DNA of 15,600 nucleotides from Pseudomonadota bacterium (GTDB taxonomy: Bacteria; Bdellovibrionota; Bdellovibrionia; Bdellovibrionales; SG-bin7): the NCBI GenBank assembly GCA_034439715.1, contig JAWXAY010000032.1, forward strand, positions 1-15,600. The letters are read 5' to 3'. Below the pieces are notes generated by a model. That model had not been told where the DNA came from. It saw only the letters and a program-made list of their open reading frames with translations, and did not search any database. Below, in pieces: positions 1 to 15,600 of this stretch. The position numbers were made by a program, and so were the translations under genes. The number at the start of each line of letters is the position of its first letter. Position 1 is the first letter of the stretch.

Positions 1-94
1 AAGACTTGCAAGTCGTGGTGAACAAGTGCCAACACCACTCGAACACGCCCGCAAAACTCGAGCCGCATAGTCAATAACCGCCCTTATGACTTGG

Positions 95-805
95 TTACAA
101 TAGGTCGATGACATGACGAAGTTGTTTCAAGCCATCCTTAAGAGGAGCGAGACGTTTGGAAGGAATGTTTTGAAAGTGTTCTTTGTTGTATGTAGGAAGG
201 CACTCCAACAAGTGGGCGACTCGTGCTTCAATTCCACTCATCTCCATTTCAATCTGACTCACCTCTCCAGTTAAAAGCAAAGTCTCTTCATCAAACTCAA
301 AATTTTCTGTCTCAGCCATATCGGCTTCTGTCAGGGCTTCCACTTCGGCGATGGCTCGTAAATTTTGATCTGACTCTAGTGAATTCAATTCTTTTGAAAG
401 TTCATTTCGCGTGAGCTTGCCAGTTAAAACTTCGACCGTGAGTTCAGCATATTTAGGTTCCGAGATATTCTGTTTCGCCAAGAGAAGTCGGTAAGCCGTA
501 TCCCAAGGAATCTTGTTGGGCTTTAGATTTTCTATGTGCTTGCGGTATTCATTCAGAACCGACAAGTGTTTAGAAATGGTTGAATAATCAAAAGAGAACT
601 CTGTACTACAATAAGCCTCGAAGGATTTGTGACCTTGTGCTTTGAATGATTTGTGTTCTCTGATTGTTTCCAAAGTTACCCAGAAAATCAAAAGACCTTT
701 CTGACAGTCGGCAAATCTTTCTTTTGCCTTCAATAGCAAGGTTTCATCTTGGTCATTCCTTCTCGTTAATTTTGTGTCTGTTTTAGGATTGTTGGTTGTT
801 GTCAT
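95..805 (-). CDS. Hypothetical mobile-element protein, putative DNA-binding (DUF3102-like segment)
   Basis: 236-aa ORF; GHKSFEAYCSTEFSFDYSTISKHL resembles the 'G-x-x-SFEEYC...HTH' segment common in phage/plasmid proteins; overlaps upstream gene. Confidence 0.6.
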   Translation of the reverse strand: MTTTNNPKTDTKLTRRNDQDETLLLKAKERFADCQKGLLIFWVTLETIREHKSFKAQGHKSFEAYCSTEFSFDYSTISKHLSVLNEYRKHIENLKPNKIPWDTAYRLLLAKQNISEPKYAELTVEVLTGKLTRNELSKELNSLESDQNLRAIAEVEALTEADMAETENFEFDEETLLLTGEVSQIEMEMSGIEARVAHLLECLPTYNKEHFQNIPSKRLAPLKDGLKQLRHVIDLL

Positions 806-1151
806 TTAATCTCCCTTGGCCTCTTGAAAAGTTGCGCGGCGCAACTTTTTTCTCGCCACTTACTGATTCTGAGTTAATCAGCTTTCTATGCTTCCGCTTT
901 TCAGTTTGAGTCATTTGATAGGGACGGTATGGATGGAGTGGACAAATCACTATCGAACAGTCGCGGATGCGCGAAACGGCGTTCTCAAATGCCATGCACT
1001 CGTGGCACTTCATTTTGAGGACTGCCGCTCGACCAGCTTTACCAATGAGCACTTTTTCAAGTCTTTTTTGAATTGGTGCCGGAGCCCTCTGTATGTACTC
1101 CCTTATTTTCTTGTCGTTATCATCAACCGTGATTTTCTCGGCTATTTTCAC
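783..1151 (-). CDS. Small phage-type zinc-finger protein
   Basis: KMKCHECM...IRDCSIVICPLHPYRPY (CxxC...CxxxxCPLxPYR); 4-nt overlap with rep-like gene. Confidence 0.7.
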   Translation of the reverse strand: MKIAEKITVDDNDKKIREYIQRAPAPIQKRLEKVLIGKAGRAAVLKMKCHECMAFENAVSRIRDCSIVICPLHPYRPYQMTQTEKRKHRKLINSESVSGEKKVAPRNFSRGQGRLNDNNQQS

Positions 1152-2083
1152 TTCAAACCTCGCTTTCTTATGAGTCCTGGGACTCTGTTAAACATCTTGG
1201 ACTCCCCAACGGAGAGCGGAGCTGACAGAAACTTGTCGAGGCGTTTCTGGAACTTGCCGCCAAGATCGTAGTTAGTGGAAATACGATATTTTTCTATTAC
1301 CTTTTTCATGCGATAAAAGTTTGAGCCGTCAATCCTTCGGAGTTGAGCCTCGGCTTCTTTTTGTCCACACACGTTAGAGAGAATCTGAAATAGGAGAATA
1401 TCTTTCCGTTGACTTGGCTTCGCCGCACTCACGTCGAATCCATAAAACTTGATTCTTCTGAATGGGTCCCTGATTTTCCAATACTGCGAAGCCTCACTAA
1501 ACCGAACTCCAATTTTAGATTCGTTGAGTCTTAATTCGATTCTTGTAGTAGGATTTTCGGGGCATTTACTCTGATGCCAGTGATGAGCATCATAAACGAC
1601 AACCTCGGTGCGAGTGGGTGAACCTAGATATAGACTCTCAGTCACGGAACCAAACTCAAGTGAGGTTGTTAGACGATAACGCCCATCCGTTCTCGAAAAA
1701 CCTCTTACGCGCATACCTCGCCGAGTGCGAGGAGTGTATATTTCAGCTTTGACCGTGTTGTATTCGGTGCCAACAAGATCAATGTTTAAGTGTTCACGCA
1801 ATATTTTAGGCTCGTCGAAGTCATCTACTACTGCATTTGTGAGAAGCTCACTAGCACGGAATGACGAGAACCCATTCGGATTAAAATCAATAACGGTGTA
1901 AGGAGCTTTAACCTTATTGTTCGTATGAAAGTAAACTCTTTGTCCTGTCACGAGAGTGGCAACAAACTCGTTTGTATAGGGGAACTTTGGTCTATACTTG
2001 TGTTTGATGTCTGCTATTAGAAGCAGATTCTTCATAAGAATTTTTTGTTCAGTCTTTAGAACTATCATATCAATCACCGCCAT
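1148..2083 (-). CDS. Divergent Rep_trans-superfamily replication initiator/relaxase-like protein
   Basis: IDFNPN, ILREHLNID (cf. isRxDxAxD), ESLYLGS...VVVYDA (cf. TxYxGS...xYdK), TRIELRL, in the order typical of Rep_trans. Confidence 0.6.
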   Translation of the reverse strand: MAVIDMIVLKTEQKILMKNLLLIADIKHKYRPKFPYTNEFVATLVTGQRVYFHTNNKVKAPYTVIDFNPNGFSSFRASELLTNAVVDDFDEPKILREHLNIDLVGTEYNTVKAEIYTPRTRRGMRVRGFSRTDGRYRLTTSLEFGSVTESLYLGSPTRTEVVVYDAHHWHQSKCPENPTTRIELRLNESKIGVRFSEASQYWKIRDPFRRIKFYGFDVSAAKPSQRKDILLFQILSNVCGQKEAEAQLRRIDGSNFYRMKKVIEKYRISTNYDLGGKFQKRLDKFLSAPLSVGESKMFNRVPGLIRKRGLK

Positions 2084-2267
2084 AGATTGTTCTCATGCTC
2101 ATCATATTGATGTAGTTGGAGTTGCCTGTAGAAAGACTGAATCGGTGAAACACGCTACTACTTTGCCTCGAATGCCGAGGAAGCAAGCCGACACAGGTGA
2201 AGTGAAAATGTCCGGTTAATTTTTTTGGAGAAGCCGTCTTTGGCTTACCGTGATTCGTCTCTTCCAT
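2070..2267 (-). CDS. Small hypothetical protein
   Basis: Fills operon gap, overlaps neighbours; ATG 2267 preceded by GGAAGGACGGCAGG. Confidence 0.3.
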   Translation of the reverse strand: MEETNHGKPKTASPKKLTGHFHFTCVGLLPRHSRQSSSVFHRFSLSTGNSNYINMMSMRTIYGGD

Positions 2268-2469
2268 CCTGCCGTCCTTCCGATTTATCAATTAGCTCTA
2301 AAATTGCGCCTTCCAGGCCATCTCGCCCGAACACTGACATTATTTTGCTGCGAAGGAGCATCCAATGAGGCGATGCACCCGCAACAACTTCAGCGGTATC
2401 GAGAAGAAATTTTCGGTGGCTTTTTAGTTCTTGGATGATTTGTTCGAGATCGTGTTTTCTAATTGCCAA
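2245..2469 (-). CDS. Small helical hypothetical protein
   Basis: 74-aa ORF, TTG start preceded by AAGGACGGACGG; protein-like amphipathic composition. Confidence 0.6.
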   Translation of the reverse strand: MAIRKHDLEQIIQELKSHRKFLLDTAEVVAGASPHWMLLRSKIMSVFGRDGLEGAILELIDKSEGRQDGRDESR

Positions 2470-2595
2470 GCCGTCCGTCCTTTCAAGCTCAATGAAGTAA
2501 CGGGCTTATAATAATCGAATTTGAATTTTCCTGTTTGATGTGGTCTGAGCGATAACTTTGTAAGCTGGAGTAAGACAGATTTGCAACATGGCTAA

Positions 2596-3213
2596 CTAAG
2601 TCAGATTCTTAATCCATGTCCTAACGGTTTCTTGAGGAAGAATAGCATCGTGAGCACAAGCAATGCCGTTCAAATCGAGTTTTATTCTCCAGGTAATAAT
2701 CTCGGTCAAATATCTTGCTCGTGCTCTGGTGAGCTTGAGAACGTCACCCCAAAATTTGTTACTATCGACCCGTTGCAGTTCTTCATTGAAGTTGCGTACA
2801 AGTGAGCGAACCGTCCCATGGTCAATGTAACAGTTCTTTCTTTTAACTGGCTTCATTCTACTCCTCTTTTCAATTAGAACTTTTTCTTCTCGCCGTGTCC
2901 TTCCATCCTTTTTCGTTTGGTCGTTTTCGTCTGTTTGCATGATTTTGCCGAAACGCTTCCGAAACGGAATAGCACGTTCGTTGAAAGGAGCACTACAGGG
3001 CCTTTTCTTTGGAGCAGGAATTGCCAAAGCAAAAACATTTGAGTTTGGATTTTGAACCAATTCGCTCAGGCAAAGGCAACTTACTACAACGCCGCTGAGG
3101 TTCGATCTACACTTGAGATCAAAAGCCTCGATCTCTTTAATATTAGGTATCTCGTCCCGAAGGAAATTAAAATTGTAGCGTTTGGAATGTCGAGCTTCAT
3201 TTTTTATTTTCAT
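2596..3213 (-). CDS. Hypothetical basic protein
   Basis: Long ORF co-oriented with operon; ATG 3213 preceded by GGATGGACGGACGGACGG. Confidence 0.5.
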   Translation of the reverse strand: MKIKNEARHSKRYNFNFLRDEIPNIKEIEAFDLKCRSNLSGVVVSCLCLSELVQNPNSNVFALAIPAPKKRPCSAPFNERAIPFRKRFGKIMQTDENDQTKKDGRTRREEKVLIEKRSRMKPVKRKNCYIDHGTVRSLVRNFNEELQRVDSNKFWGDVLKLTRARARYLTEIITWRIKLDLNGIACAHDAILPQETVRTWIKNLT

Positions 3214-3245
3214 CCGTCCGTCCGTCCATCCATTCAACCCGCGAT

Positions 3246-3428
3246 CTATACTTCGATAGTCAAATTCTTATCTGCCAATGCCGACTCCAAGATGGCAGCA
3301 ATTAGACTCTGCCTTGTGACTTTTTCTTTTTTTGAAAGCCGATCAAGTTTTTGCATGATGGGCTTGGGGATTCTTACGGTGACCGTGCTTAGTTCATCAC
3401 CGCTGTACGAGCGTTTCACTATTTTCAT
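3246..3428 (-). CDS. Ribbon-helix-helix (CopG/Arc-like) DNA-binding protein
   Basis: TVTVRIPKPIMQKLDRLSKKEKVTRQSLIAAILESAL; GAGGTG SD upstream of ATG 3428. Confidence 0.8.
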   Translation of the reverse strand: MKIVKRSYSGDELSTVTVRIPKPIMQKLDRLSKKEKVTRQSLIAAILESALADKNLTIEV

Positions 3429-3473
3429 TTGTTTCACCTCTCATTGCCTCAGTATGACGGATGGTGAACCAAA

Positions 3474-3493
3474 TGCAATCTAAACAGATTGCA
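3474..3493. promoter_or_regulatory. Perfect 8-bp inverted repeat, putative operator
   Basis: TGCAATCT-aaac-AGATTGCA, plus a further AGATTGC copy at 3497-3503; overlaps the -35 box. Confidence 0.6.
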
Positions 3494-3517
3494 AATAGAT
3501 TGCGCAGCGCGTATAAT
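3489..3517 (+). promoter_or_regulatory. Sigma70-type promoter of recombinase gene
   Basis: TTGCAA-17 bp-TATAAT, 6 nt upstream of ATG 3524. Confidence 0.75.
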
Positions 3518-3523
3518 AAAGGA

Positions 3524-4147
3524 ATGAAGCCAAAACGCTATATTCTATATTTGAGAATCTCGACCGCTGAACAGAACAGCGATCTTCAGCGTCGGGAACT
3601 AGTTGAATACGCAAACCGACGTGGATGGACGTATGAAATTCTTGAAGACAAGGCGAGTGGCACCCATGCAAATCGTCCCGCACTTCAGAAGCTCTTACAG
3701 TTGGCTCGAAGCCGTAAGATTGATGGGATTGCCGTGTGGAAGTGTGACCGACTGTTTCGCAGCTTGAAACACGCGGTTGTCACATTGGCAGAACTTACCG
3801 AGCTTGGTGTTGAGTTTTATAGTCACAAAGATCAGATTGACCTTTCCACTTCCACGGGTCGGTTAATGGCAAATATGCTCATGGCATTCGCGGAGTTTGA
3901 AGCCGACCTTATTAAATCTCGCGTCGTTTCAGGACTCCAGGCCGCCAAAGCGAGAGGCGTCCAGCTAGGCCGTCCTAAGATTGTAAATGACGAAGTTATT
4001 CGGCAAGTGTTGGATTTGCGATTCAACCGTAAGTTGTCCATTCGTCAGATAAGTGAAGCACTAGCGCACAAAGTTTCAAAAACAAGTATCGAAAGAATCT
4101 TAAGAGATAACGACCCGTCAAAACCCACTTTAAAAAAGTCGGTTTAA
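3524..4147 (+). CDS. Small serine recombinase (resolvase/invertase family) with C-terminal HTH
   Basis: YLRIST catalytic Ser motif, SG...RPALQKLL, DRLFRS, GRLMANMLMAFAEFE, GRP + HTH (LSIRQIS). Confidence 0.95.
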   Translation: MKPKRYILYLRISTAEQNSDLQRRELVEYANRRGWTYEILEDKASGTHANRPALQKLLQLARSRKIDGIAVWKCDRLFRSLKHAVVTLAELTELGVEFYSHKDQIDLSTSTGRLMANMLMAFAEFEADLIKSRVVSGLQAAKARGVQLGRPKIVNDEVIRQVLDLRFNRKLSIRQISEALAHKVSKTSIERILRDNDPSKPTLKKSV

Positions 4148-4239
4148 GGGACGGATAGATTTCATCCTGAGTCCATCTTGCCACTCAACTTTGACCACTC
4201 AGAAAACTGTAGTTTTTGGCGGAAGCCGTAAGGAGATGT

Positions 4240-5094
4240 ATGCGCGTATTTTACGACAAGAGACAATCAGTCAAGGACAACCAGAGTTTCTCACCAAGCT
4301 CTCAGAAGTCTGCGTTGCTTGCAGCGGAGTGGAAGAGACTGGGACTTCCCGTGGACATTCAAACTTTCAAGCCCGCGACTCGAAGCGAACTCTATCAAGT
4401 ACACGACCGTGAGTATGTGGATGGCGTTCTCGATCTTAACCGTGACAATGGTTACGGCAATAGAAATCCAAAAGTCGCTCAGTCACTTCCGTGGGTCGTC
4501 GGTTCATTCCTCAATGCTGTGAAGTATTCGATGAAGACTCGACAGGATTCATGGAGTCTCACATCGGGTGCCCACCATGCCCATAAATCGTACGGTTCGG
4601 GTTTTTGCAGTTTTAACTTTCTCATGCTTGGAGCACTCGCTGCTAAGAATCTGGGAGCAAAGAAAATAATTTTGATCGACCTAGATCGTCACGCGCCAGA
4701 CGGATGCCGACAGATTCAAAAAGAAATCGGCCTAAGCGAGTTAAGTATCTATGCCTTCGGCGATCAAATGCTCCAGACGGTCGAAGATACCGAAGGTTGG
4801 CTCAAGAAATTGCCGCCAATTTTACTTTCGCTTTGTGACGGAGCCGATCTTGTTTTTTTCAATGCTGGAGTAGACCCAGCAACGACGGATTTTTTGGGCG
4901 GGTTGATGACTGCCGAACAAATGTCTCGCCGAGATCGCCTCGTCTTTGAAACAGCAAAGATGTTTAATGTGCCCGTCGTTGTCTCTCTCGCGGGCGGTTA
5001 CTCTCGTGACAGTAAAGGAACCCCTCGGCCCACAGTTGAATTGCATACAGAGACGATGCGGCAGCACCTTTTAGTTCACGGAGTTCAATCATGA
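4240..5094 (+). CDS. Histone deacetylase (HDAC/AcuC/APAH) superfamily Zn-dependent amidohydrolase
   Basis: VHDREYV, GAHHA, GSGFCSFN, DLDRHAPDG, NAGVDP, LAGGY; AGGAG SD before ATG 4240. Confidence 0.92.
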   Translation: MRVFYDKRQSVKDNQSFSPSSQKSALLAAEWKRLGLPVDIQTFKPATRSELYQVHDREYVDGVLDLNRDNGYGNRNPKVAQSLPWVVGSFLNAVKYSMKTRQDSWSLTSGAHHAHKSYGSGFCSFNFLMLGALAAKNLGAKKIILIDLDRHAPDGCRQIQKEIGLSELSIYAFGDQMLQTVEDTEGWLKKLPPILLSLCDGADLVFFNAGVDPATTDFLGGLMTAEQMSRRDRLVFETAKMFNVPVVVSLAGGYSRDSKGTPRPTVELHTETMRQHLLVHGVQS

Positions 5095-5519
5095 CATCGC
5101 ATGAAACTATTATCGAATGCGCCAAGCGGCTTATTGAGCGAAATGAACTGGCTCGCGCTATTAGGTTGTTAAACAAAGCAGCGAAATGGTTTCCGCGTGA
5201 AGTAAACATCTGGAGGCTACTCGGTGTGGCTCAAGGAAGTAGCGGCAATCATCTAGGTGCTCGTGCTGCATTCTTAGAGGCCGTCGATCTTAATTTAGCC
5301 GACATTGATGTTGCCAATTTAATCACGACCTTCTGGCCGACCGACGAAGCAAAACAGGGCATTGAAATTTTGGAATCGCAGTTTGAAAGTCTTAGCCCCG
5401 CAGCAAAAGAAATTGCGATCAATAGTGTTTGCGAAGCAATGCGAGTGGGCGTCCTACAGTTCGACTGGCTTCCATCCGTCGTCCAGCAACATTACGTCAC
5501 GGTGTACGGCAAGCCGTAA
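5091..5519 (+). CDS. TPR-repeat protein
   Basis: AIRLLNKAAKWFPREVNIWRLLGVAQGSSGNHLGARAAFLEAVDL TPR pattern; ATGA overlap with HDAC gene. Confidence 0.75.
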   Translation: MTSHETIIECAKRLIERNELARAIRLLNKAAKWFPREVNIWRLLGVAQGSSGNHLGARAAFLEAVDLNLADIDVANLITTFWPTDEAKQGIEILESQFESLSPAAKEIAINSVCEAMRVGVLQFDWLPSVVQQHYVTVYGKP

Positions 5520-5535
5520 TACTGTACGGCTTGTC
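5508..5535. terminator. Stem-loop at end of HDAC-TPR operon (no U-tract)
   Basis: CAAGCCGTA (5510-5518) / TACGGCTTG (5525-5533) inverted repeat. Confidence 0.35.
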
Positions 5536-5602
5536 GGATATTCAGACGACTAGTCGTTGCTGCGTGGACTGCAATTAAAAAAGGGAGAACGATATTAGGT
5601 TC

Positions 5603-5899
5603 ATGGAAATTAAGATTGCCAAAAGTTTGACCGCACTTATGAAGCAACGAGGACTCTCATTGAGAGAGTTGTCGAAGCTCAGTGGTGTTCCTCCCACGAC
5701 GCTGAATGAGTGGCTATCGAATCGTCCACCTCGTAACCCAGTGCAAATAAAGAAAGTCGCTGAAGCGTTGGATGTGTCACTCAACTTTCTATTGTTCAAC
5801 GAAGAAGACAAACACGACCCACTCCAACGAATTTTGGTTGAGGATATATTCTCTGGAAATTTTCAGATCACTGTAAAGCGGCTGAAGTTCGATAAGTAA
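5603..5899 (+). CDS. XRE-family HTH transcriptional regulator
   Basis: LMKQRGLSLRELSKLSGVPPTTLNEWL...KVAEALDVSLNFLL. Confidence 0.92.
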   Translation: MEIKIAKSLTALMKQRGLSLRELSKLSGVPPTTLNEWLSNRPPRNPVQIKKVAEALDVSLNFLLFNEEDKHDPLQRILVEDIFSGNFQITVKRLKFDK

Positions 5900-5914
5900 A
5901 GGAGTGGGCAAATT

Positions 5915-6964
5915 ATGAATAAATTGATTTTACTTTCTATTATTTTGTCGTTGACGGGATGTGCCTCAGTCACTCCACAACAGGAGTCCGCTCGCAATGC
6001 ACTTCAGGAAAAACATTTTTATAAGTACGACTCTCATGAGGATTTTTTTCAGGCGATTGAGAAAAATAATTTGGCGGCGATCAAATTATATTTGGCATCC
6101 AGGGACAGCTATCCTTATAGCTCAAATACAGATCGTGAAGACCTAGAAACCATAGGGTGGTACGCGATGGAGCGAGCGTTAAATAAGCCGCCGATTCTAA
6201 CTGAGTTTCTCAAATTCAAGGTCACCCAGCAAGGTGCGAAGGATATGGTCTGGTCAGAGTGGAAAGTGAAGTGCCCTGAAAGTCGAGACGAGATATTTGA
6301 AGCATTGCTGAAATACGGCGGGAGTCCCAAAAACCCAAGTCGGGCCGCCCACAAGCTCGTCAACAATGGCTGTGTTGACGAATTAAAGAGATATTTGGCA
6401 CTTTATCCAGCGGGCGCACGGGGATTTTATACCGATTCCTACACCCGATTTGGAATTAGGTACGATGCTAATGATGGAAGCTCTACCATCGACAAAAAGA
6501 AGTACGATAACTACCTACAAATCGGGGCAATACTAAGAGAAGGAAATGAAAGGGAGTGCCAAGCTAAGGTCTTAGAGGCTTGCAAAGCCAATAGTGAACT
6601 GAATGAATATATGATCGCACTTAAGTCCAAATATGACTTATGGGTGACAGAAGAAGCCAAAAGAAAAGTAGGCGAAGCAGAGTTCGAAGCCGAAGCAAAA
6701 AAACAGGAGAAAGATGAAGCCAGCGGTAAATATGATTTTGACCGCGCCTGTGGAGCCTTAAATCAAATCGAGTTCGATAAACGCATAATTGCCGATGAGA
6801 AAAAAATCACCGCTCAATCAGGCGTGGTGAACAAAGCTGTTCTTTATGAAACGACCCGTCGCTTACAGGCAGACTATGGATTCCTGGACCACTTAAAGAA
6901 AGAATACAAAAAGAAGTCCGGCAAGGCATTCAATCCAAAGGACTGTGGTAAGGACAAGCAATAG
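5915..6964 (+). CDS. Lipoprotein of unknown function
   Basis: Signal peptide with lipobox LTGC; GGAG SD; weak ankyrin-like segment (IFEALLKYGG). Confidence 0.8.
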   Translation: MNKLILLSIILSLTGCASVTPQQESARNALQEKHFYKYDSHEDFFQAIEKNNLAAIKLYLASRDSYPYSSNTDREDLETIGWYAMERALNKPPILTEFLKFKVTQQGAKDMVWSEWKVKCPESRDEIFEALLKYGGSPKNPSRAAHKLVNNGCVDELKRYLALYPAGARGFYTDSYTRFGIRYDANDGSSTIDKKKYDNYLQIGAILREGNERECQAKVLEACKANSELNEYMIALKSKYDLWVTEEAKRKVGEAEFEAEAKKQEKDEASGKYDFDRACGALNQIEFDKRIIADEKKITAQSGVVNKAVLYETTRRLQADYGFLDHLKKEYKKKSGKAFNPKDCGKDKQ

Positions 6965-7071
6965 TTTTAAGGGCAGGCGTAGTGAACAAGGTTGTCGCCG
7001 AACTCACCAAACAACACGACGAATCTGAAGATCAAGACTGACTCTACTTTTCTACGTAGAAACTTTTGCCG

Positions 7072-7653
7072 CTATGCACCCTCATTCATTGCCGTTCGCT
7101 GTTTCCATTCGCGTTTGATTTCAATCAACGTGATGACATCGTCGTAGGTGAATTGATCGACAAGGGGGTCCGACTTCAAGTCCCGTGGTGGTTCGCAAGA
7201 GTGTATTGGCGAACAAGGCTCAGAGGTCTGCGCTGTACGCCGTTCAATCTCAGGTGCAATTCCCAATGCTTTCATGGCGACGGTCTGAGTGGTTTCAAGG
7301 CTTCTCATGTAGTCTACGAGTTCCTTGGACGAGAGCCTTCCTTTTTCACCCTTCACGGATAAGTCTCGCATGGTAAGTGCCGCTCCTAACTTTGCCGTCT
7401 TGAAGATTTGGTTATTGGTTTCGAGTGCGTCTTGCAGGAGAGCATCTTGCTTCGCCGAAAGTACGTTATTCTGAAGTTCTTGTCGTCGGGTATTCCATTG
7501 CAGGGCGGGTGCTTGCTGCATGACGTATCTATATCGCCGAGGCGTGAAGCCCTTCACATTGATAAGGAAGTCTCGAACAGATTTGTTCGCGTGGTTGGAG
7601 GCCCATTCAAACTGTAGGTCGTGAATCGAATTTACAACCTCACCCCTCGCCAT
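7072..7653 (-). CDS. Hypothetical phage-like helical protein (possibly terminase small subunit-like)
   Basis: AAGGGAG SD before ATG 7653; N-terminal HTH-like region followed by coiled coil; family assignment weak. Confidence 0.5.
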   Translation of the reverse strand: MARGEVVNSIHDLQFEWASNHANKSVRDFLINVKGFTPRRYRYVMQQAPALQWNTRRQELQNNVLSAKQDALLQDALETNNQIFKTAKLGAALTMRDLSVKGEKGRLSSKELVDYMRSLETTQTVAMKALGIAPEIERRTAQTSEPCSPIHSCEPPRDLKSDPLVDQFTYDDVITLIEIKREWKQRTAMNEGA

Positions 7654-7964
7654 TTTATCTCCCTTGTATGCCACGTCTGTACCATGCAGTGGCATCTCTT
7701 CTTCGGAAGACCGCGATCAATTCAGGTAACTTTCAGTAACCTCTTGTCTTGGACTCCGCAGGTCACTGGGACCGTTGGGTGTCCATAGGGCCTGATTGGC
7801 GAGCGAGTCGCACAGCGAGATGAAGAAGTCGAACTCAACATTGCTGTGACCTGATCATGCCCACGCTATTACTTCTTTGACCAGTTGGATTAACGCATCC
7901 TATGCTGAAATCCTGCGTCACAACATGAGAGACTGGAAAAACGGATGGAACCCTAGAGAACGGA

Positions 7965-8588
7965 GTGGGCGTCATTAAATCATTGCGTCCTAACTTCATT
8001 GTCGGCATTGGCGGCTCGGCGGGTGGTCTTAGCGCATACAAGGCGTTCTTGGACTCTTTGCCGTCTGATACTGGTATGGCCTTTGTCATTGTTGCTCATC
8101 TCATGCCCACCGCCAACAGTCAGTTGGCGCAAATTCTGTCACGTCACACGAAGATGAAAGTATCCCTGGCTTCTGCGGCGATGCCGATCTTCGCGAATCA
8201 CGTCTACGTAAATCAACCGAACGCCAAGATTCTAATTGAGAATTATACCTTCAAAGTTATTTCCCCGCTAACTCGTGAGGTGAATAAGCAAATAGATTTG
8301 TTTTTGACTTCATTAGCTGAGGCTATGGAGAAAAATGCGATTGGCATTATCCTCTCTGGTTCTGGCAGCGACGGCTCTGAAGGATGTAAACAAATCAAGG
8401 CAAAGGGCGGAGCAACCTTTGCTCAGGACAAGTCTGCCGAATTTACCGGAATGCCCGTCAATGCTCAAGCTACAGGCTGTGTTGACTTCGTTCTGCCTCC
8501 CAACAAAATTTCAGAAAAACTACAACGCTTGGTAAGCCCTTCACTAAATAAATGGCGCAGATTAGCGGCCAAGCAGGCTAAAAAATAA
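7965..8588 (+). CDS. cheB: Stand-alone CheB-type methylesterase domain
   Basis: GIGGSAGG, VAHL, ILSGSGSDG, MP..A, VDFVLPP; no receiver or CheR domain. Confidence 0.9.
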   Translation: MGVIKSLRPNFIVGIGGSAGGLSAYKAFLDSLPSDTGMAFVIVAHLMPTANSQLAQILSRHTKMKVSLASAAMPIFANHVYVNQPNAKILIENYTFKVISPLTREVNKQIDLFLTSLAEAMEKNAIGIILSGSGSDGSEGCKQIKAKGGATFAQDKSAEFTGMPVNAQATGCVDFVLPPNKISEKLQRLVSPSLNKWRRLAAKQAKK

Positions 8589-8646
8589 GTTTCTTTGGGC
8601 TATTATTGAAAACATGAAAAAAGAGTTCGTTGTGAGCAGCTTGGTT

Positions 8647-9273
8647 CTAAACTGCTTTTTTAAGCCAAATGATTTTTAACGGATTCTTAGCAATGTGTGA
8701 TTCACACCACTTCCTTGAACCCAACTTAAGGGCGATTTCTTTAGGTGAAAGAACGAAATCTACATGGTCAATTTCTATCGCCGCAATCGGCATTGATTCC
8801 GAAGCCGCAGTTGCAGGAGTTTGGGCCATGGTCATGCCACCTTTTTCCTTCAATACTTTAAGTCCTTCTGCGCCATCAGAACCTTCTCCAGAGAGAATTA
8901 TTCCAATGGACCCGCGAGCCTGATCGGCAGCTAAGGACAATATGAAATGGTCAACCGCGCTGTTCACTCCTTTGTCTGGGCGACGAATGAGAAGAAGCGA
9001 GTCGTCTTTGATTTCCATAAACTTATCAGGCGGCAGAATATAGATGTGATTAGCGACGAGTTGCTCCCGATGAGTGACTTCAACGACTGGCATTTTTGTC
9101 GAGCGAGAAAGAATCTCAGGAAGTAGGCTCTTTGACCCTCGCAGAACGTGAGAAAGTAAGACAAACGCCATTCCGGTATCGGTCGGCAGGTTTTCAATAA
9201 GCTCCTGAAAAGCGGCCAAGCCGCCAGCGGACGCACCGATTGCAACCACACATGGATAGTCTAATTCTTTCAT
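8647..9273 (-). CDS. cheB: Stand-alone CheB-type methylesterase domain (second copy)
   Basis: AIGASAGG, LSHV, ILSGEGSDG, SMP, VDFVLSP. Confidence 0.9.
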   Translation of the reverse strand: MKELDYPCVVAIGASAGGLAAFQELIENLPTDTGMAFVLLSHVLRGSKSLLPEILSRSTKMPVVEVTHREQLVANHIYILPPDKFMEIKDDSLLLIRRPDKGVNSAVDHFILSLAADQARGSIGIILSGEGSDGAEGLKVLKEKGGMTMAQTPATAASESMPIAAIEIDHVDFVLSPKEIALKLGSRKWCESHIAKNPLKIIWLKKAV

Positions 9274-9379
9274 ATCTTTGTTTACTCCGCCTTGCATCAA
9301 CCTGACCACACTTATTCAAAGCCAGGTGGAGAGGAATCAAAACAAGGCCATTCCGATGCGGTCAATCTCTGATAAGCAA

Positions 9380-9922
9380 CTAGAGAATGCGTCCCAAAAT
9401 CTGTGGGTGAAGTTTAGAAGCCTCGTCCTTACCTGACTTGTGGGTGACGGCAGTTTGGCCGTCAGGGTCCGTTCGGCCAAGGACTCGCCTGACCATTTCA
9501 GGATGCCATTGTTGACCTCGACGCTTGGTAGGAACTCCGGTGCTGCTCATGTATTGAGCGACTTGCCTGAGACTCATTCCCTTTTCACGTAGTTCTCTTA
9601 TGGCTTTGACTACTCTTTGTTCCCCCAAATGAGGACCGAGACGACCATTTACGATGCGGTGTCCATAAGCAGGTTGAGCGGGTTGCCCGTGAGGCTTATG
9701 CGAAGGTCTTCGCTCAATGTTGTGCCGCTTCAGGTTGGCCCGAACGGCTTCTTTTGAGGAACTTGTTTGTGACGCGATCTGGGCGATTGATAGCTTTTGA
9801 ACGGTGTATTTTTCGGTGAGGAAGCCCTTGTCTTTGTATTCGGGCGAATGTAGTTTCTGAGATGTATCAACAACATAGGCGGTTGAGGAACTTTCGTGTT
9901 TTCTGGCTTCGTCTTCCCGCCA
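9380..9922 (-). CDS. Start-less 180-aa ORF: HTH + serine-recombinase-type DNA-binding module
   Basis: Frame is open from TGG at 9922 (WREDEARK...LSIAQIASQTSSSKEAVRANLKR...PAYG...EQRVVKAIRELREKGMSLRQVA...VPTKRRGQQWHPEMVRRVL); in-frame TAA at 9926-9928; first ATG/GTG/TTG is only at 9628. Confidence 0.75.
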   Translation of the reverse strand, partial: WREDEARKHESSSTAYVVDTSQKLHSPEYKDKGFLTEKYTVQKLSIAQIASQTSSSKEAVRANLKRHNIERRPSHKPHGQPAQPAYGHRIVNGRLGPHLGEQRVVKAIRELREKGMSLRQVAQYMSSTGVPTKRRGQQWHPEMVRRVLGRTDPDGQTAVTHKSGKDEASKLHPQILGRIL

Positions 9923-9927
9923 AATTT
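9914..9927 (+). repeat. att-like site 1
   Basis: TTCCCGCCAAATTT; CCCGCCAAATTT shared with site 2. Confidence 0.65.
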
Positions 9928-10038
9928 ATTTTAATTTTTCCTTTCTCTGAATTTTTCATTTTTTATTTAGAATCTATTAACAATTTTAACATTTTGAGAA
10001 TGATTTAGGGACTTTGATTCTCCAGCCACTATTCCACG

Positions 10039-10093
10039 CAAAATCATACAAAATCATGGCAGTTGTAGTTCTTTTGTAGTCCGCGAACTACAA
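10039..10093. repeat. Cluster of short direct and inverted repeats, possible recombinase arm/binding sites
   Basis: CAAAATCAT x2 (10039, 10049); TTGTAGT x2 (10063, 10074); TTGTAGTTC/GAACTACAA inverted pair (10063-10071/10085-10093). Confidence 0.55.
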
Positions 10094-10109
10094 GTTGGCA
10101 TGGCTCTAG

Positions 10110-10319
10110 GCCGACTCCACGAACCTGAAGCATCAGGGCTTCAGTTGTGGGCATGATACCTGCCATTTCAATTAAAGTTGTGTCGTGAAATATCAAATAG
10201 GGCGGAACTCTATTTTCCTTAGCAAGTCTCTTTCGTACATTTTTAAGTTCAATAAATAATTTCTGAGAAGAATTATTTTTTCGAGCTGGAAACTTCCCGG
10301 CCCGATCTTTACGGCAAGA
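10110..10319 (-). pseudogene. HRDC domain fragment (RecQ C-terminal type), no start codon, truncated after GVG
   Basis: Manual translation: QKLFIELKNVRKRLAKENRVPPYLIFHDTTLIEMAGIMPTTEALMLQVRGVG; lacks the following K..KYG helix; not in ORF track. Confidence 0.85.
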
Positions 10320-10345
10320 TTACCTTATGGGGCCCGTGATTAATT

Positions 10346-11797
10346 TTATCCGTTTACATCCCTGTGAGCTTCACTATTTCGGCGCTTACTTTTTATTGGC
10401 AATTCAAACCAGAATATCGAGCCTGAACTTTCAGAAGATTTAACTCCAATCCTCCCGCCATGAGCTTCGACAAGTCGTTTAGCGGTGGCCAAGCCCAAGC
10501 CTGTGCCCTCGATATGAGAATTTTCGCCCCTCACAAATGGTTCAAAAATTCGCGCACGGATTTCAAAAGGAATTCCTGGGCCCGTGTCTTCGATTTCGAA
10601 GCGAAGCATTTCCCCTCGGATTTTATTTCGCACATGAATCTTTTTAACGGGAGACTCCACAATAAATTTAATTGCATTTCGCAAAAGGTTTTCTAACACA
10701 CTCGTCAGCACACCAGCGCTTGTCGCAACAAACACGGGCTGACCGTTAACAATCAATAACTCAATCCCCGCCTGCTTTGTCGACAATATATAGCTTGATT
10801 CTAAATCGTGAAGCAGAAAACGAACATCCGCAGAATCTGTTCTGTTAGTTACACCAGCGGCCTTTGCGTAAGCAAGAAGGTCGTCTGATAATGTGGTGGC
10901 GCGAGTTAAACTTCGTCTCACTATATCAAAATAGGGCCTTATAGAATTATCTTTATTCGACTCTTCAATTAATTGAGCCGCCATACCAATTGAACTCAGA
11001 GGATTTTTAATGTCATGTGCAATTCTGCCCGCAAATAAGTCTAATTCATTCACTTTTTCAGTCAGAAGCCTATTGTAATTTTCGACAAGTTTTTGATTCC
11101 CATTTAAAATTCGCAATAAAATGAATGCCACAATAACCGAAATTAATACGCTAAACAGTCCGAGGATAATACTCAGCGCACCAGTTTCTTTACGAATTGT
11201 TTCGATCTCAAGAGCTAAAATTGCGGAAACTTTAGCATCATGCTCGATAGTATTAGTAATGGCCTCACCCGCTTTATCAATTTCTGGTATCAATTCTTCT
11301 TTTAATATATTTTTCGCATTAATCAGATTACCAGCCTCTACGGCAGCCAAAACTATCTCGGCAATTTTTATTACATTATTAACTTCCTGTTGTACCTTTG
11401 TCCATAAACCTAACTCATCTCGCAACAATTCTAATGCCAAGTAAGATTCGCTCTCCTGCTTAAGCTCATTGATCTGCTTTTTTATATCTACTTCTATACT
11501 TTTTGCCTGTGGATGCAAAACAAAAGCCGTCATTTCGCTTCTGAGAGTCGAAACGGTCGTTCTTGCTTGGGCCAAAAAAATTATACTTGGTGCAGCTACC
11601 TCACTAATGGCTACAGCTGTCTCGTCCAAACGCTGAAGACGATTTTGTGTGTAAAAAATTGTAAAAACGAAACTCATAATATTAATCGCAAAGGCTAAGG
11701 GTAATGCGATTTTATATGATGATTTGATTTTAAAGTTTTTTAGCATCGCGTCCATTCCTTCTGCTAAATTAGAGGCCGATCCTACAGCAAACTTCAT
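10346..11797 (-). CDS. Membrane sensor histidine kinase (two TM, periplasmic four-helix-bundle-like sensor, HisKA, HATPase_c)
   Basis: IAHDIKNPL H-box, NLLRNAIKF N-box, DTGPGI, IFEPF, GTGLGL; true start may be 11755 or 11746. Confidence 0.93.
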   Translation of the reverse strand: MKFAVGSASNLAEGMDAMLKNFKIKSSYKIALPLAFAINIMSFVFTIFYTQNRLQRLDETAVAISEVAAPSIIFLAQARTTVSTLRSEMTAFVLHPQAKSIEVDIKKQINELKQESESYLALELLRDELGLWTKVQQEVNNVIKIAEIVLAAVEAGNLINAKNILKEELIPEIDKAGEAITNTIEHDAKVSAILALEIETIRKETGALSIILGLFSVLISVIVAFILLRILNGNQKLVENYNRLLTEKVNELDLFAGRIAHDIKNPLSSIGMAAQLIEESNKDNSIRPYFDIVRRSLTRATTLSDDLLAYAKAAGVTNRTDSADVRFLLHDLESSYILSTKQAGIELLIVNGQPVFVATSAGVLTSVLENLLRNAIKFIVESPVKKIHVRNKIRGEMLRFEIEDTGPGIPFEIRARIFEPFVRGENSHIEGTGLGLATAKRLVEAHGGRIGVKSSESSGSIFWFELPIKSKRRNSEAHRDVNG

Positions 11798-11852
11798 CTT
11801 ATTTCGAAGTTTTTTTGAATTTTATCTTGCATGATAAGTGAGCAGATGGCCG

Positions 11853-12047
11853 CTATTTCACATTAGTTTTAGTTAATGCCCAATTAAGAACTTTGATAAG
11901 CCGAGGTACTAATAGTTTTTCAGCTTTTAACTTGTCGACCCATCGAAATTCTACGTGCTCAGGTGAAATCACGACATCTTTTGAAAAAACTTGGGCTAAA
12001 TAATAGCGGGCAATTTTTTTATTAGAATATGGCTGGGATGACGTGGG
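11853..12047 (-). pseudogene. 3' half of a NUDIX hydrolase (Ap4A hydrolase-like); NUDIX box missing
   Basis: Manual translation: QPYSNKKIARYYLAQVFSKDVVISPEHVEFRWVDKLKAEKLLVPRLIKVLNWA; in-frame TAA at 12048-12050 upstream. Confidence 0.75.
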
Positions 12048-12080
12048 TTAAGGAGCTAGAATTATAGTAGTTTTCCACCA

Positions 12081-12093
12081 CCCCGCCAAATTT
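12081..12093 (+). repeat. att-like site 2
   Basis: CCCCGCCAAATTT; IHF-like TTTCACatagTTA at 12105-12117. Confidence 0.65.
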
Positions 12094-12176
12094 CTCTTAA
12101 ATAATTTCACATAGTTAGATACAATTTTTCCCAAGAGGCTCAACGGGTCTCGAACTTTCATCTCAAAGGATAGTTT

Positions 12177-12737
12177 ATGAAATTACTTATAGTTATTTCG
12201 TTTTTGTTAGCATTAGTCTCATGTAAATCTGTTGGGGTATTAGAATCTAATGATCCAAAAATAAAAATTCGCGATGGCTATTCATTGCTACAAGCTGGCC
12301 GATCTCTACCGGCGCTACGCTTATTCAATGAAGCTAATGATGCTTTGAAAAATCAAAACGATGAGTCTTTAAGAGCTCATGCACTTGTTGCCCTTGGCGA
12401 TGTTTATAAGTTTAAGGATGGCAAAGCACAAACTGAGAAAACTTATAGCTTAAATAATTCTGTCACTAACTATAAGGATGCTGCAAAAATACTATCGAAA
12501 ATGAAGTACAACCAACGTTTATCCATGGCATATTGGGGAATTGCCCAAGCTTATGCGCAAGAAAATAATACGAATAAAAGCTGTGAGTATATCAATAAAG
12601 CAGCCAAAGCTTATTATGAGCTCTCTGGTGGAGCTGATGATGAGTTAAATAAAAACGATATGGCTTCAGCAATTACTTACTTCGAGCATTCTAAAAAACA
12701 AAAATTTAAAGCTTCATGTGGGTCTAGTGTCAGATAG
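12177..12737 (+). CDS. TPR-like lipoprotein
   Basis: Lipobox LVSC; ALVALGDVY and AYWGIAQAYAQ TPR-like helices; AAGGA SD. Confidence 0.8.
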   Translation: MKLLIVISFLLALVSCKSVGVLESNDPKIKIRDGYSLLQAGRSLPALRLFNEANDALKNQNDESLRAHALVALGDVYKFKDGKAQTEKTYSLNNSVTNYKDAAKILSKMKYNQRLSMAYWGIAQAYAQENNTNKSCEYINKAAKAYYELSGGADDELNKNDMASAITYFEHSKKQKFKASCGSSVR

Positions 12738-12767
12738 GTTCTAAACTCGTTTACTTTGCCCCGCCAA
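12738..12767 (+). repeat. att-like site 3
   Basis: GTTCTAAACTCGTTTACTTTGCCCCGCCAA, 24/30 identical to site 4; starts immediately after the lipoprotein stop codon; IHF-like motif at 12776-12788 (minus strand). Confidence 0.75.
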
Positions 12768-12835
12768 AACTGCTGTAACCCATTGAAATCAAATTAGATT
12801 TTAATCTAGATGGATCTTTTATTCAAAGTATGTTA

Positions 12836-12868
12836 AGTTATAACTAGGTTATGCCGATATTATAACTA
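12836..12868. promoter_or_regulatory. Putative TA autoregulatory operator
   Basis: Palindrome AGTTATAACT (12836-12845); TTATAACTA repeated at 12838 and 12860. Confidence 0.5.
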
Positions 12869-12894
12869 AGTAAATTAGCTAATTGGAGATTAGA

Positions 12895-13128
12895 ATGAAA
12901 ACTTTAGCATTAAGACAAATTGGTAATTCTCAAGGGATCATTTTAGAAAAAACGATTTTAGAGCTGATTGGTGCCGATCAAAAAAATACCGTATTTGCTA
13001 TTCGGGTAGAAGACGGAGAGCTAATTCTTCGCCCTCTAAATGCCAAGGAACAAAAAGAAATGATAAAGAGAGCTGCAAAGGAGATTACGCAGGAACAGGC
13101 TCCCATTTTGAAAAAACTGGCAAAATAA
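12895..13128 (+). CDS. AbrB/MazE-family antitoxin
   Basis: LRQIGNSQGIILEK...VEDGELILRP; GGAG SD; C-terminal LKKLAK typical of Doc-associated antitoxins. Confidence 0.9.
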   Translation: MKTLALRQIGNSQGIILEKTILELIGADQKNTVFAIRVEDGELILRPLNAKEQKEMIKRAAKEITQEQAPILKKLAK

Positions 13129-13548
13129 ATGAACATAAAAATTGTCGGTTACATCTATCTAGATGAAGACGATGTTAAAGAAATCCATGATGATCAGATA
13201 TCTAAATTTGGTGGCTCTCTAGGAATACGAGACCATGCTGGCCTGGCAAGTGCAGTGGCTTAGCCACAAATGACCTATGGGAAAGAAGATTTGTATGGGG
13301 ATGTCTACGCTAAAGCTGCGGTTCTAGCGCACGGAATTTCAGAGGGACAACCATTTGTAGATGGAAATAAAAGGACAGCACTGGTATCTGCTTTGGCCTT
13401 TCTAAAAGTAAATGGTCATGGTGTTCTCCCGGCTGAGGAGCGCTTGTATGAGGCTATGATAGGAATTGCAAACAGAAAGACTTCTAAAGAAGACTTAGCG
13501 CAACTTTTTCGTGAGCTGGATTGCGAATTTAATACTCGAAGGGATTAA
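13129..13548 (+). pseudogene. doc: Doc (Fic-family) toxin interrupted by in-frame TAG at 13261-13263
   Basis: MNIKIVGYIYLDEDDVKEIHDDQISKFGGSLGIRDHAGLASAVA*PQMTY...QPFVDGNKRTA; ATG directly follows antitoxin TAA. Confidence 0.88.
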
Positions 13549-13549
13549 G

Positions 13550-13947
13550 ATGGCTATTTTTAGAAATTCGCTCATTTCAATTTTAGTGATTTTATCCAAT
13601 GCCTATGCAGACAAGAGCCAAATGTGATTGTCGAAGGTAGTTTGGAGTATACTATGTTTGTTAAATACATGTTAAAGGGACGCATAACGAACTTGGACAA
13701 AATTAAGTTTACCGCAAAACAAAAAAAAGAACTAAAAGAAGAGATAGGAATTGGATTCTTGGTAAGTCATGAAGATGGAAGTAAAAAAAGCTGCTCAAAA
13801 GGTAAATTTGAAATTCATCCCGATTCCATTCGAAAGTTTATATATCCGACAAATGAAGAAGCTGTTTTACTTGGTGGCGAATTAATCCCCTTGGTGAGTG
13901 CAATGTGTGCTGCTTCTGGATCTAGCGGGGCCTCGTCCGCAAAATAA
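13550..13947 (+). pseudogene. Secreted hypothetical protein with frameshift near 13610
   Basis: Signal peptide MAIFRNSLISILVILSNAYA from ATG 13550 is out of frame with the 13624-13947 ORF. Confidence 0.6.
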
Positions 13948-13983
13948 TCGCTCCAAAATCAGGCGGCGCTTGACCAACACCAA

Positions 13984-14013
13984 GTTCGATACTCGTCCCA
14001 TTTGCCCCGCCAA
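13984..14013 (+). repeat. att-like site 4
   Basis: GTTCGATACTCGTCCCATTTGCCCCGCCAA, lying between convergent gene ends. Confidence 0.75.
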
Positions 14014-14018
14014 TAAAC

Positions 14019-14909
14019 TTAAAGCATCCCGCGTTCTCGAAGCCACTTAAGAGACTACGTGATCACCGAGCTAAAAACTTCTTTTTTTCCAGGTCCGAGA
14101 TGCCCGCCTTCTGCTTTTTGACTCGTCACCTGCGCAGGTGATTCACTAAGTGCCGTCTGCAGGCTTTGAATGGATTGAATAGGTAGTTGTTCATCCTCCG
14201 TCGCATAAAGATTTAAGACCTGTTGATGGCTATGTAATTTTCGAACTTCGGTTTCGGGATCTTTGTATGCCAAATAATCCCATGTGATATGACCCAGTAA
14301 AAATGCAATCGGATAGCTCCACCATTCCCATTTATTTACTAGTTGTTGGGTGATTGCGGATTCGACTTTTCCAAAGGCATGAATGAGTAGAATCCCATCA
14401 ATTTCTGAGTTTCGAACTGCGGCCGTAATTGCAAAGGGAGCTCCAAAACTTGCCCCGGCAAAAATCATTCTATTTTTATTTACCCGCGGATCGATCCGTA
14501 GTTTTTCTATTAGCGCATCGACACATAAGTCGACTCGATGAATGGCCTTCTTTATCTCAGGAATTTCCTTTAGGTCCGCTAAGAAACTGCGTTGATTTGG
14601 TGCTTTGTAGGGGTAATCGACAGTCGCGTAAATCGCATTTAAATCGACGGGCAGCTGTTCAAGTGATTTTTCTCCAGTATCAAAACCTCCAAGAACAATC
14701 AATACGGGTAGTGGCAAATCAGTTTTTTTGGGGAGCGTTAGAAGGGCGGTATATCTGGTTCCATCACTCATCGAAAGTTCCAAGCGTTCACCAAAGCGTG
14801 GGGATTTCGACTCAGCTGGAGGTTCTGCAAAGATCAAAGAAGAGCTGAAAATGAAAGCTGTGAGACCACAAACCCACTTCATTTCTGGCAACATGTATTT
14901 AATTCGCAA
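14019..14909 (-). CDS. Secreted alpha/beta-fold hydrolase; TAG at 14055-14057 probably premature (true end 14019)
   Basis: GASFG nucleophile elbow, EDEQLP, GGH; read-through adds SLKWLRERGML then TAA. Confidence 0.85.
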
Positions 14910-15600
14910 TTCTTAACGTTGTCAGATTATCCAGCCGCATCACCTTTAAGATATCCAACTTTTTTTCAATGTCATCGCCGCTCCAGCCTTCAGAATGAAA
15001 AACTGCATTGGCGTCGCGGATAAGTTCAGGGTCATGGGTAAAGTTTCTCAGCCATTCGTGGAAGAGAAGAAAAGACAATTGCAAAGGCAAAAGTTTTGAA
15101 ATTATTTGTGTGGAATACGTGTAATCCGCACCAAAGACATAATAGGAGCCCTGTCTTCCCGGAATTTCCATTTGCCAATTTTTTGGAGTGCGCAAAACAG
15201 TTTGAATTAATTGGTTTTTTGCGTCCAAACAATTTGGCGGGATACGGTGGCGAAGTCCTTCATCCTCGACATCAACAACACCGTATGGTGCCTTCTTCCA
15301 TACATAGCGTTGACCGAGGACATTGGCCCAAATACCTTCGTAAAATCCTTTGAGATCATAATAGAGAACTTTATATTTTTTATCACTTTGGAAAGCCTTT
15401 AAGATACGCCGAAAGTTTACATCGGAGGGATCATTGGGCCCTACGACCTTTTCAAAATCTTTACTCATCTCGACATCAGAAATTTTATTGATGAGGTAGT
15501 CGAGATTATAAAATCCCTTAAAAGTACTCACTCGAGCTTGATCTTCGCAAAAAACAGTATCGCCGCCATTACCGACTGCGCCGCCCGCATAGGTTAAAGA
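14899..15600 (-). CDS. Secreted hypothetical protein with GGxxGNGGD motif, 5'-partial
   Basis: Frame is open to the window edge: SLTYAGGAVGNGGDTVFC...; LxFHEWLR motif. Confidence 0.75.
   Translation of the reverse strand, partial: SLTYAGGAVGNGGDTVFCEDQARVSTFKGFYNLDYLINKISDVEMSKDFEKVVGPNDPSDVNFRRILKAFQSDKKYKVLYYDLKGFYEGIWANVLGQRYVWKKAPYGVVDVEDEGLRHRIPPNCLDAKNQLIQTVLRTPKNWQMEIPGRQGSYYVFGADYTYSTQIISKLLPLQLSFLLFHEWLRNFTHDPELIRDANAVFHSEGWSGDDIEKKLDILKVMRLDNLTTLRIAN

Follow-up and report, generated by a model that had tools for sequence, protein, structure and literature searches.

Integrase-less gene modules between tRNA-Asp-type junctions in a Bdellovibrionales contig, and their probable origin by site-specific integration

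We analysed a 15,600-nt stretch of DNA (the window) that is one complete contig (C32) of a Bdellovibrionales genome of 3.26 Mb and 95.7% completeness. Its right-hand part carries three short gene modules delimited by four direct repeats, which the original prediction had described as one set of sites resembling a tRNA 3′ end. Genomes are labelled Gnnn, with G000 carrying the window and the others being those compared with it; Lnnn are loci that were read, and Cnn are contigs of G000. The repeat CCCGCCAA was found on the + strand at 9916, 12082, 12760 and 14006, in the single orientation that had been predicted, with a fifth copy on the − strand at 15234. The core-to-core spacings of 2166, 678 and 1246 nt agree with the module sizes of about 2.2, 0.7 and 1.2 kb given earlier, and both the 24/30-nt match between sites 3 and 4 and the CCCGCCAAATTT shared by sites 1 and 2 were reproduced. 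All four sites are real, yet they fall into three junction types, which have the final 7 nt of tRNA-Asp(GTC) in common. The features, by window position, are as follows.

9380–9925, − strand: small frame with a Recombinase domain (PF07508; hereafter small-Rec) beginning at site 1, with no in-frame ATG, GTG or TTG start at the site
9892–9922, + strand: site 1, class I; core CCCGCCA, preceded by the left arm of a small-Rec/large-serine-integrase island (inferred crossover CC at 9917–9918)
9923–12088: module 1, 2166 nt, with an HRDC fragment and a sensor kinase; its left end matches no known arm
10044–10319, − strand: HRDC-domain fragment (PF00570, E 4e-15)
10346–11797, − strand: sensor histidine kinase, by domain matches (4HB_MCP, HisKA, HATPase_c)
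12078–12088, + strand: site 2, class II; 11 nt that match the tRNA-Asp(GTC) 3′ end exactly by tRNA comparison
12089–12157, + strand: R1, the 69-nt left arm of module 2, with an IHF-like box and, at its inner end, an inverted tRNA T-loop motif
12177–12737, + strand: cargo of module 2, a 186-aa TPR-like putative lipoprotein that begins 20 nt after R1 and whose stop codon abuts site 3
12738–12766, + strand: site 3, class III; 23-nt conserved arm followed by CCGCCA (crossover inferred at CC 12761–12762)
12767–14012: module 3, 1246 nt, with an antitoxin, a broken Doc toxin and an open reading frame (ORF) of no known family; its right end is class III
12895–13128, + strand: AbrB/MazE-type antitoxin (PF04014 and TIGR02609, both below cut-offs)
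13129–13548, + strand: Fic/Doc toxin gene with an in-frame stop at 13261–13263
13564–13947, + strand: open frame of unknown family, with no match in Pfam or NCBIfam
13984–14012, + strand: site 4, class III junction (inferred crossover CC at 14007–14008)

Treating all four sites as one family was abandoned after an arm-pattern search and the reading of loci. The likeness to a tRNA 3′ end holds for site 2, a true tRNA fragment; sites 3 and 4 are instead attP-type arms, and site 1 comes from a different family of islands. These three site kinds, the Recombinase-domain frame running from site 1 and the 69-nt left arm of module 2 had all been missed. Shuffled sequence contained 0.39 copies of CCCGCCAA on average, with none of 200 shuffles reaching five, and four same-strand copies within 4.1 kb have P ~2e-6 at genome density, calculated after the fact; the interval also contains three AT-rich 8-mers four times each. 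The genome-wide scan that had been proposed gave a divided answer: the 8-mer is frequent (130 copies across the genome), whereas the longer class III arm occurs in G000 at sites 3 and 4 only. Because the 8-mer is so common, the case rests on the longer features.

The class III arm is a conserved 29-nt element, and its family closes short modules 3′ of tRNA-Asp in many Bdellovibrionales. We read 63 regions 3′ of tRNA-Asp (60 picked for long contigs among 122 matching genomes, plus 3 from earlier), and near-copies of sites 3 and 4 in four of them supplied a search pattern. With this pattern we found matches in 61 of 384 genomes of the order and, with its reversed form as control, in 7; five of the 61 (G000 and the four pattern-source genomes) are included by construction. 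A species collection yielded 53 exact stretches, including Eisenbacteria and one Jorgensenbacteria, and viral contigs yielded 0 matches. The arm is often repeated every 0.9–2 kb, with three or four sites in the arrays of G203, G026, G237, G011 and G258; arrays directly 3′ of tRNA-Asp were observed in relatives, and within the DNA examined the tRNA lies upstream on the same strand for 45 of 121 distinct arms. An early count of bare cores 3′ of tRNA-Asp was weak (36 vs 18 in 1.0 Mb, 63 loci). The same site types occur in the order's genomes and in records named Bdellovibrionales. One locus, L257, is 99.96% identical to the window and therefore not independent evidence; the right flank was matched by its own genome only (1/41), leaving no close relative for a strain-by-strain comparison of breakpoints.

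Modules closed by a class III arm (n = 68) have a median length of 1.78 kb. Three hold a full large serine recombinase (LSR), four an LSR relic and three a nested small-Rec frame, and the remaining 58 gave no match to a recombinase panel that is weak for tyrosine integrases. The window's modules likewise lack a recombinase of their own, as had been proposed: no recombinase domain was found in the scanned module ORFs, and no LSR query matched the contig. Some modules are free of genes (230 nt in L078 of G030, 138 nt in L165), and G030 carries a long hairpin trailer in duplicate, after the tRNA and after the far site. In L160 and L218 class III arms lie 1.2 and 3.4 kb 3′ of tRNA-Ser(GGA) rather than tRNA-Asp. 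At L043:2439–2467 a class III-like arm ends in GCACCA, a different tRNA-type ending, and the family may thus serve other tRNAs.

The position of the arm relative to the core points to an LSR. Across 117 arms, conservation falls off from 1.8 to 0.7 bits immediately beyond the G at position 24 (the inside having been selected by the pattern), and a weaker subfamily signal persists for ~10 nt beyond this first G. A 9-bp box occupies positions 24–16 from the CC in sites 3 and 4 versus 19–11 in tRNA-Asp, with the centre placed by inference from the LSR junctions of G000; the tRNA-converging LSRs of that genome have an element arm of 17–18 nt versus a tRNA arm of 13 nt. For the LI/A118 integrase, the ZD motif is described at 16–24 in attP and 11–19 in attB (Rutherford et al. 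2013, PMC3783163), and the conserved G of the class III arm coincides with the outer edge of that motif as given there. The 5-bp attP/attB shift of large serine integrases would account for the span of 29 rather than 24 nt that the original prediction had recorded. We consider it very likely that the class III arm is an LSR att half. The arm can be translated as GSKLVPFAPP, but an origin as the 3′ terminus of an LSR gene was rejected, because no LSR ends in the arm in 52 of 52 loci.

The tRNA-Asp gene is the point of convergence for one LSR family, whose islands end in a class III arm. In G058 and G247 a 500-aa LSR, preceded by a MerR-like helix-turn-helix (HTH) gene, runs antisense into tRNA-Asp; the domains of this type, seen in relatives only, are Resolvase, Recombinase and a Zn ribbon. 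Seven close homologs (47–75% alike) all lie at tRNA-Asp or a fragment of it. The first site downstream of the gene is class III in four of five assessable islands (G058, G247, G274 and G277, the last with a partial gene), whereas the islands of other Asp-targeting LSRs have the arm in 0 of 4; those of G009, G146 and G219 are cut short and were not judged. C-terminal relics of the G058-type LSR (37–275 aa) occur in four further modules. Its best NCBIfam match is CcrB (E 5e-29, score 101 vs a cut-off of 900). The nearest relative within G000, a broken LSR converging on tRNA-Ser(GGA) (C15, L240, 5589–6620), is 34–38% alike over the C-terminus.

Module 2 is a complete cassette, composed of a 69-nt left arm, one gene and a 29-nt right arm. 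The 70 nt to the right of site 2 gave alignment scores of 74–86 with flanks in other genomes, against a shuffled maximum of 32, while the flanks of sites 1, 3 and 4 score within the shuffle range. In the DNA examined we found 28 distinct R1 copies of 67–72 nt, which follow a class III arm (16), tRNA-Asp itself (4) or other junctions (8). A strict R1 pattern in which the core was not required gave 11 copies in 10 of 384 genomes, all 11 following a core, with 0 in the control. A class III arm closes 15 of the 28 after 0.41–1.25 kb, and the sequence runs out in 10. No BLASTP pair was found among the 15 cargo ORFs between R1 and class III, a few of which are spurious short calls; this cargo includes LysE, MerR, GNAT, APH, DJ-1/PfpI and ORF6N. 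R1 is non-coding, of fixed length and present in at least four families of the order. Its inner end carries the inverted T-loop box (11/12 nt, positions 64–72), and 11 of the 28 copies have an IHF-like box (shuffled mean 1.9, maximum 6). R1 may serve as an integrase arm, a promoter or both. Homologs of the module 2 gene number two in 384 genomes, one reversed inside a 6.1-kb array module and the other on a short site-less piece, and these placements therefore do not represent the same cassette elsewhere. Module 2 looks intact, and modules 1 and 3 look decayed. On sequence comparison, standard package ends recur across Bdellovibrio-like bacteria with unrelated genes, akin to integron cassettes.

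Site 1 has a different affiliation. Small-Rec homologs are present in 62 of 151 genomes of the order, and 28 of the 29 homolog loci listed begin, as judged by eye, at a TGG motif mirroring the tRNA 3′ end; since small-Rec frames start there in varying frames, the motif is a DNA site. In G013, G008 and G090 an LSR converges on tRNA-Asp and a small-Rec frame closes the island 17–40 kb away; in G123 and G071 the frame closes a 2.1–2.3-kb module without an LSR 3′ of tRNA-Asp. From this geometry, site 1 is the far end of the island filling the left part of the window. L159, with tRNA-Asp followed by class I, III and III, comes near the window's order, and a related-locus search using the small-Rec frame gave no match. 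Targeting of tRNA-Ser by site 1 was dropped, tRNA-Ser ending in CTCCGCCA and the six closest small-Rec homologs having the Asp-type core. At about 3230–3300 of C83 in G000 (L043), the 3′ end of an LSR gene is fused directly to a small-Rec start, attP-like, with 18-nt symmetric arms, and the same junction occurs in G099 (L024/L057). Recombination makes or breaks the small-Rec 5′ end, and the product may therefore be a directionality or control factor.

A promoter-like match directed at the kinase gene overlaps site 2 with its −35-like box, and tyrosine integrases were found beside class II sites; site 2 was probably left by a tyrosine-integrase island or is a decayed arm. Module 1 is probably a decayed island remnant. 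In module 3 the Doc toxin gene is interrupted whereas the antitoxin gene is intact; MazE/Doc homologs near tRNA-Asp in G009 and G148 were not counted, as the loci were preselected for such sites.

Of the 42 tRNAs of G000, tRNA-Asp(GTC) alone ends in CCCGCCA, and this 3′ end is nearly invariant across the order. The gene lies terminally on contig C58, which is connected to C47. The left end of the window is a 98-nt repeat common to six contig ends, part of a 2373-nt piece at 9x depth that we infer to be a multi-copy insertion sequence (IS); no partner contig end was found for a target duplication that would bridge it. Because the IS breaks the contig, the link between array and tRNA-Asp is drawn from relatives. 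A tRNA search of the window found none, and an Rfam scan gave two matches, both under the gathering score. Positions 1–9379 are island-like, with a resolvase (3461–4147), a histone-deacetylase-family gene, TPR and HTH genes, two convergent CheB methylesterases and several family-less ORFs. At the other end, the ORF family at 14899–15600 includes a 62% paralog on C41, and its distant homologs lie next to class III sites in L234 and L132; the array may continue rightward beyond site 4.

We favour, with moderate confidence, a reading in which the sites are attR-type junctions from site-specific integration at the 3′ end of tRNA-Asp(GTC) and the modules are integrase-less cassettes moved by a visiting LSR. 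The class III arm would be the P′ half of the attP, its box contacted by the zinc-ribbon domain, and the tRNA would serve as attB. An LSR island would integrate at tRNA-Asp and leave by way of either the nearest arm or one more distant, carrying the cassettes between along with it; a later exit at the nearest arm would strand those cassettes. Alternatively, single cassettes would be excised in trans by the LSR of a visiting island. The order island, arm, R1 cassette, arm (G247, G274) would resemble an intermediate, and the order tRNA, R1 cassette, arm (G203, G207, G250) a product. Each newly integrated module would push older ones away from the tRNA, giving for the window, oldest and outermost to youngest, module 3, module 2, module 1 and the left island, with site 1 left by another LSR island type. 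An extension of this model, which we put forward as tentative, is that R1 and the class III arm constitute a standing cassette format, a 'serine integron' without a resident integrase that captures one or two genes between fixed ends. Its circle would present an asymmetric attP of ~100 bp, on which an IHF-type bend would return the far box to the integrase, and visiting tRNA-Asp LSR islands would shuffle cassettes across Bdellovibrionota, perhaps Eisenbacteria and the candidate phyla radiation (CPR).

Several observations weigh against the visiting-LSR interpretation. The compared genomes are mutually related, so that counts overstate independence, and the array–tRNA-Asp link is not closed in the G000 assembly. 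Three of the 28 R1 copies lack a class III arm although 4.9 kb or more of sequence is available, modules 1 and 3 have left ends with nothing above shuffles, and G375, with a broken LSR of the family, has no class III arm in 38 kb. A close LSR homolog was found in only 9 of 384 genomes (at most four candidates per genome scored), G000 not among them; the array-rich G203, G026 and G011 (97–98% complete) have no full-length LSR; and one of nine Eisenbacteria-type genomes has a match above 31% identity, a partial one. The G058-type LSR's own P arm shows, by eye, no clear inverted box at 16–24, and the R1 box at 64–72 is predicted by no LSR model consulted. Finally, the proposed check for circular junctions came back negative: no excision joint was seen at any site in 4 of 4 runs, the joints seen being short-sided and elsewhere, in contigs that drop rare variants and come from 4 of 11 listed sequencing runs, one possibly the source. 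Because the LSR is rare, has no close homolog in G000 and is absent in full length from these three genomes with arrays, the arm's LSR partner, if it is the partner, visits rather than resides, we infer; and since G000 as assembled has no close homolog, the window's array is probably dormant.

The excision result would also follow if the modules were inert scars, each a one-off decay product of a larger island that used the same LSR and never moved as a unit. LSR relics in four modules, trailer duplications of 63–159 nt in six of nine tRNA/site pairs, the broken Doc gene, the HRDC fragment and the lack of a conserved left end on modules 1 and 3 all agree with this, and for those two modules it is the best fit. 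R1 argues the other way: a non-coding left end of fixed length that closely encloses unrelated genes in at least four families would not be explained by independent decay, and as an account of the whole array we judge inert scars unlikely. Less probable still is movement of the R1–class III cassettes by a host-factor-dependent tyrosine recombinase, a tRNA-targeting integrase or XerC/D, with a 7-nt CCCGCCA overlap and bending at the IHF-like box. The excess of these boxes in R1, three IHF/HU-family genes in G000, arrays in genomes without an LSR and the integrases beside class II sites speak for such an enzyme. The 5-bp shift is an LSR signature, and 0 of 68 class III modules matched a 13-protein panel, which is insensitive and missed an integrase-like ORF in G137; R1 scores 7–9/11 against an XerD-arm motif, without a control, and has no dif layout.

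A true integron with attC sites and an IntI integrase is very improbable, even though the modules are cassette-sized, carry integron-type cargo (GNAT, LysE, APH, DJ-1/PfpI, MerR, toxin-antitoxin) and show, at 45 of 117 sites, a stop triplet directly against the arm. At only 8 of those 117 does an in-frame ORF run up to the arm, junction hairpins are absent (z 0.10, −0.74, 1.16 and 0.20 at the four sites), the boxes on either side of the junction form GTT...AAC, opposite to the layout of attC, the arrays are anchored at a tRNA end, and phage-integrase-family matches number 0 on the window contig against 14 on other contigs. Of the integron-like accretion array originally proposed, the stacking of integrase-less modules at a tRNA 3′ end therefore stands and integron chemistry does not, the likeness being one of result only. 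That the sites are chance repeats or plain tRNA fragments is hardly credible: the abundance of the 8-mer and the 11 nt of site 2, overlapping a promoter-like match, would allow it, yet the shuffle result, the recurrence and conservation of the arm, and the recurrence of R1, which directly follows site 2, contradict it, and for sites 1, 3 and 4 conservation in relatives refutes it.

The array suggests a gene-gain route in predatory bacteria, by which short standard packages bring toxin-antitoxin pairs, defence-like genes, acetyltransferases and a phosphotransferase to a single tRNA, and it offers a testable integrase–site pair and possibly a host-factor-assisted serine attP. If the cassettes move as units, integron-like cassette systems would have arisen on serine chemistry too, providing a second system for studying gene entry into cassettes; if the modules are only scars, they would be an orderly example of known accretion. 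We found no literature on this system in Bdellovibrio, on serine-recombinase cassette arrays or on a standard single-gene cassette format among what were mostly open-access main texts (supplementary LSR-target tables could list tRNA-Asp sites); the main text of PMC10083194 has no mention of 'tRNA'.

Integron cassettes are short modules with one or two genes near their ends. The modules described here share this build and similar cargo families, but they have no attC hairpin and no resident IntI or attI, and each cassette has two different conserved ends. With known LSR systems they share the candidate's Resolvase, Recombinase and Zn-ribbon domains and, as far as described in PMC3783163, the 9-bp box at 16–24 of the element arm and 11–19 of the target arm; they differ in that the target is a tRNA 3′ end and the system is known from sequence, and in that only left arms have the box at the standard place, the R1 box lying ~48 bp farther, beyond the IHF-like box. 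In tycheposons of Prochlorococcus tRNA islands, successive integration similarly displaces older elements outward and leaves partial tRNAs such as site 2, but 910 of 937 elements use and encode tyrosine integrases of their own (bioRxiv 10.1101/2020.12.28.424599), and sites 3 and 4 are not partial tRNAs. In the staphylococcal cassette chromosome (SCC), the Ccr LSR of one island excises neighbouring cassettes singly or together (bioRxiv 10.1101/2023.03.17.533233), much as one visiting island's LSR is proposed to move its neighbours here, and the candidate's best match, far below cut-off, is CcrB; SCC as described there differs in its rlmH target, 18-nt sites and 17–48-kb cassettes, against a tRNA end, 29-nt arms and modules of median 1.8 kb. 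The closest process is that of cis-mobilizable elements (CIMEs), which have lost the integrase, kept their att ends and stack at one target as new elements arrive (PMC5704250). The att-bounded, integrase-less tandem modules (58 of 68 class III modules, and all three in the window) are of this kind, but that account treats decayed integrative conjugative or mobilizable elements, whereas here, in different families, one standard end pair surrounds one or two genes that are unrelated between cassettes, and the modules showed no conjugation gene. The accretion of integrase-less, att-bounded modules thus resembles a known process, and the standard ends of single-gene cassettes are the part for which no published account was found.

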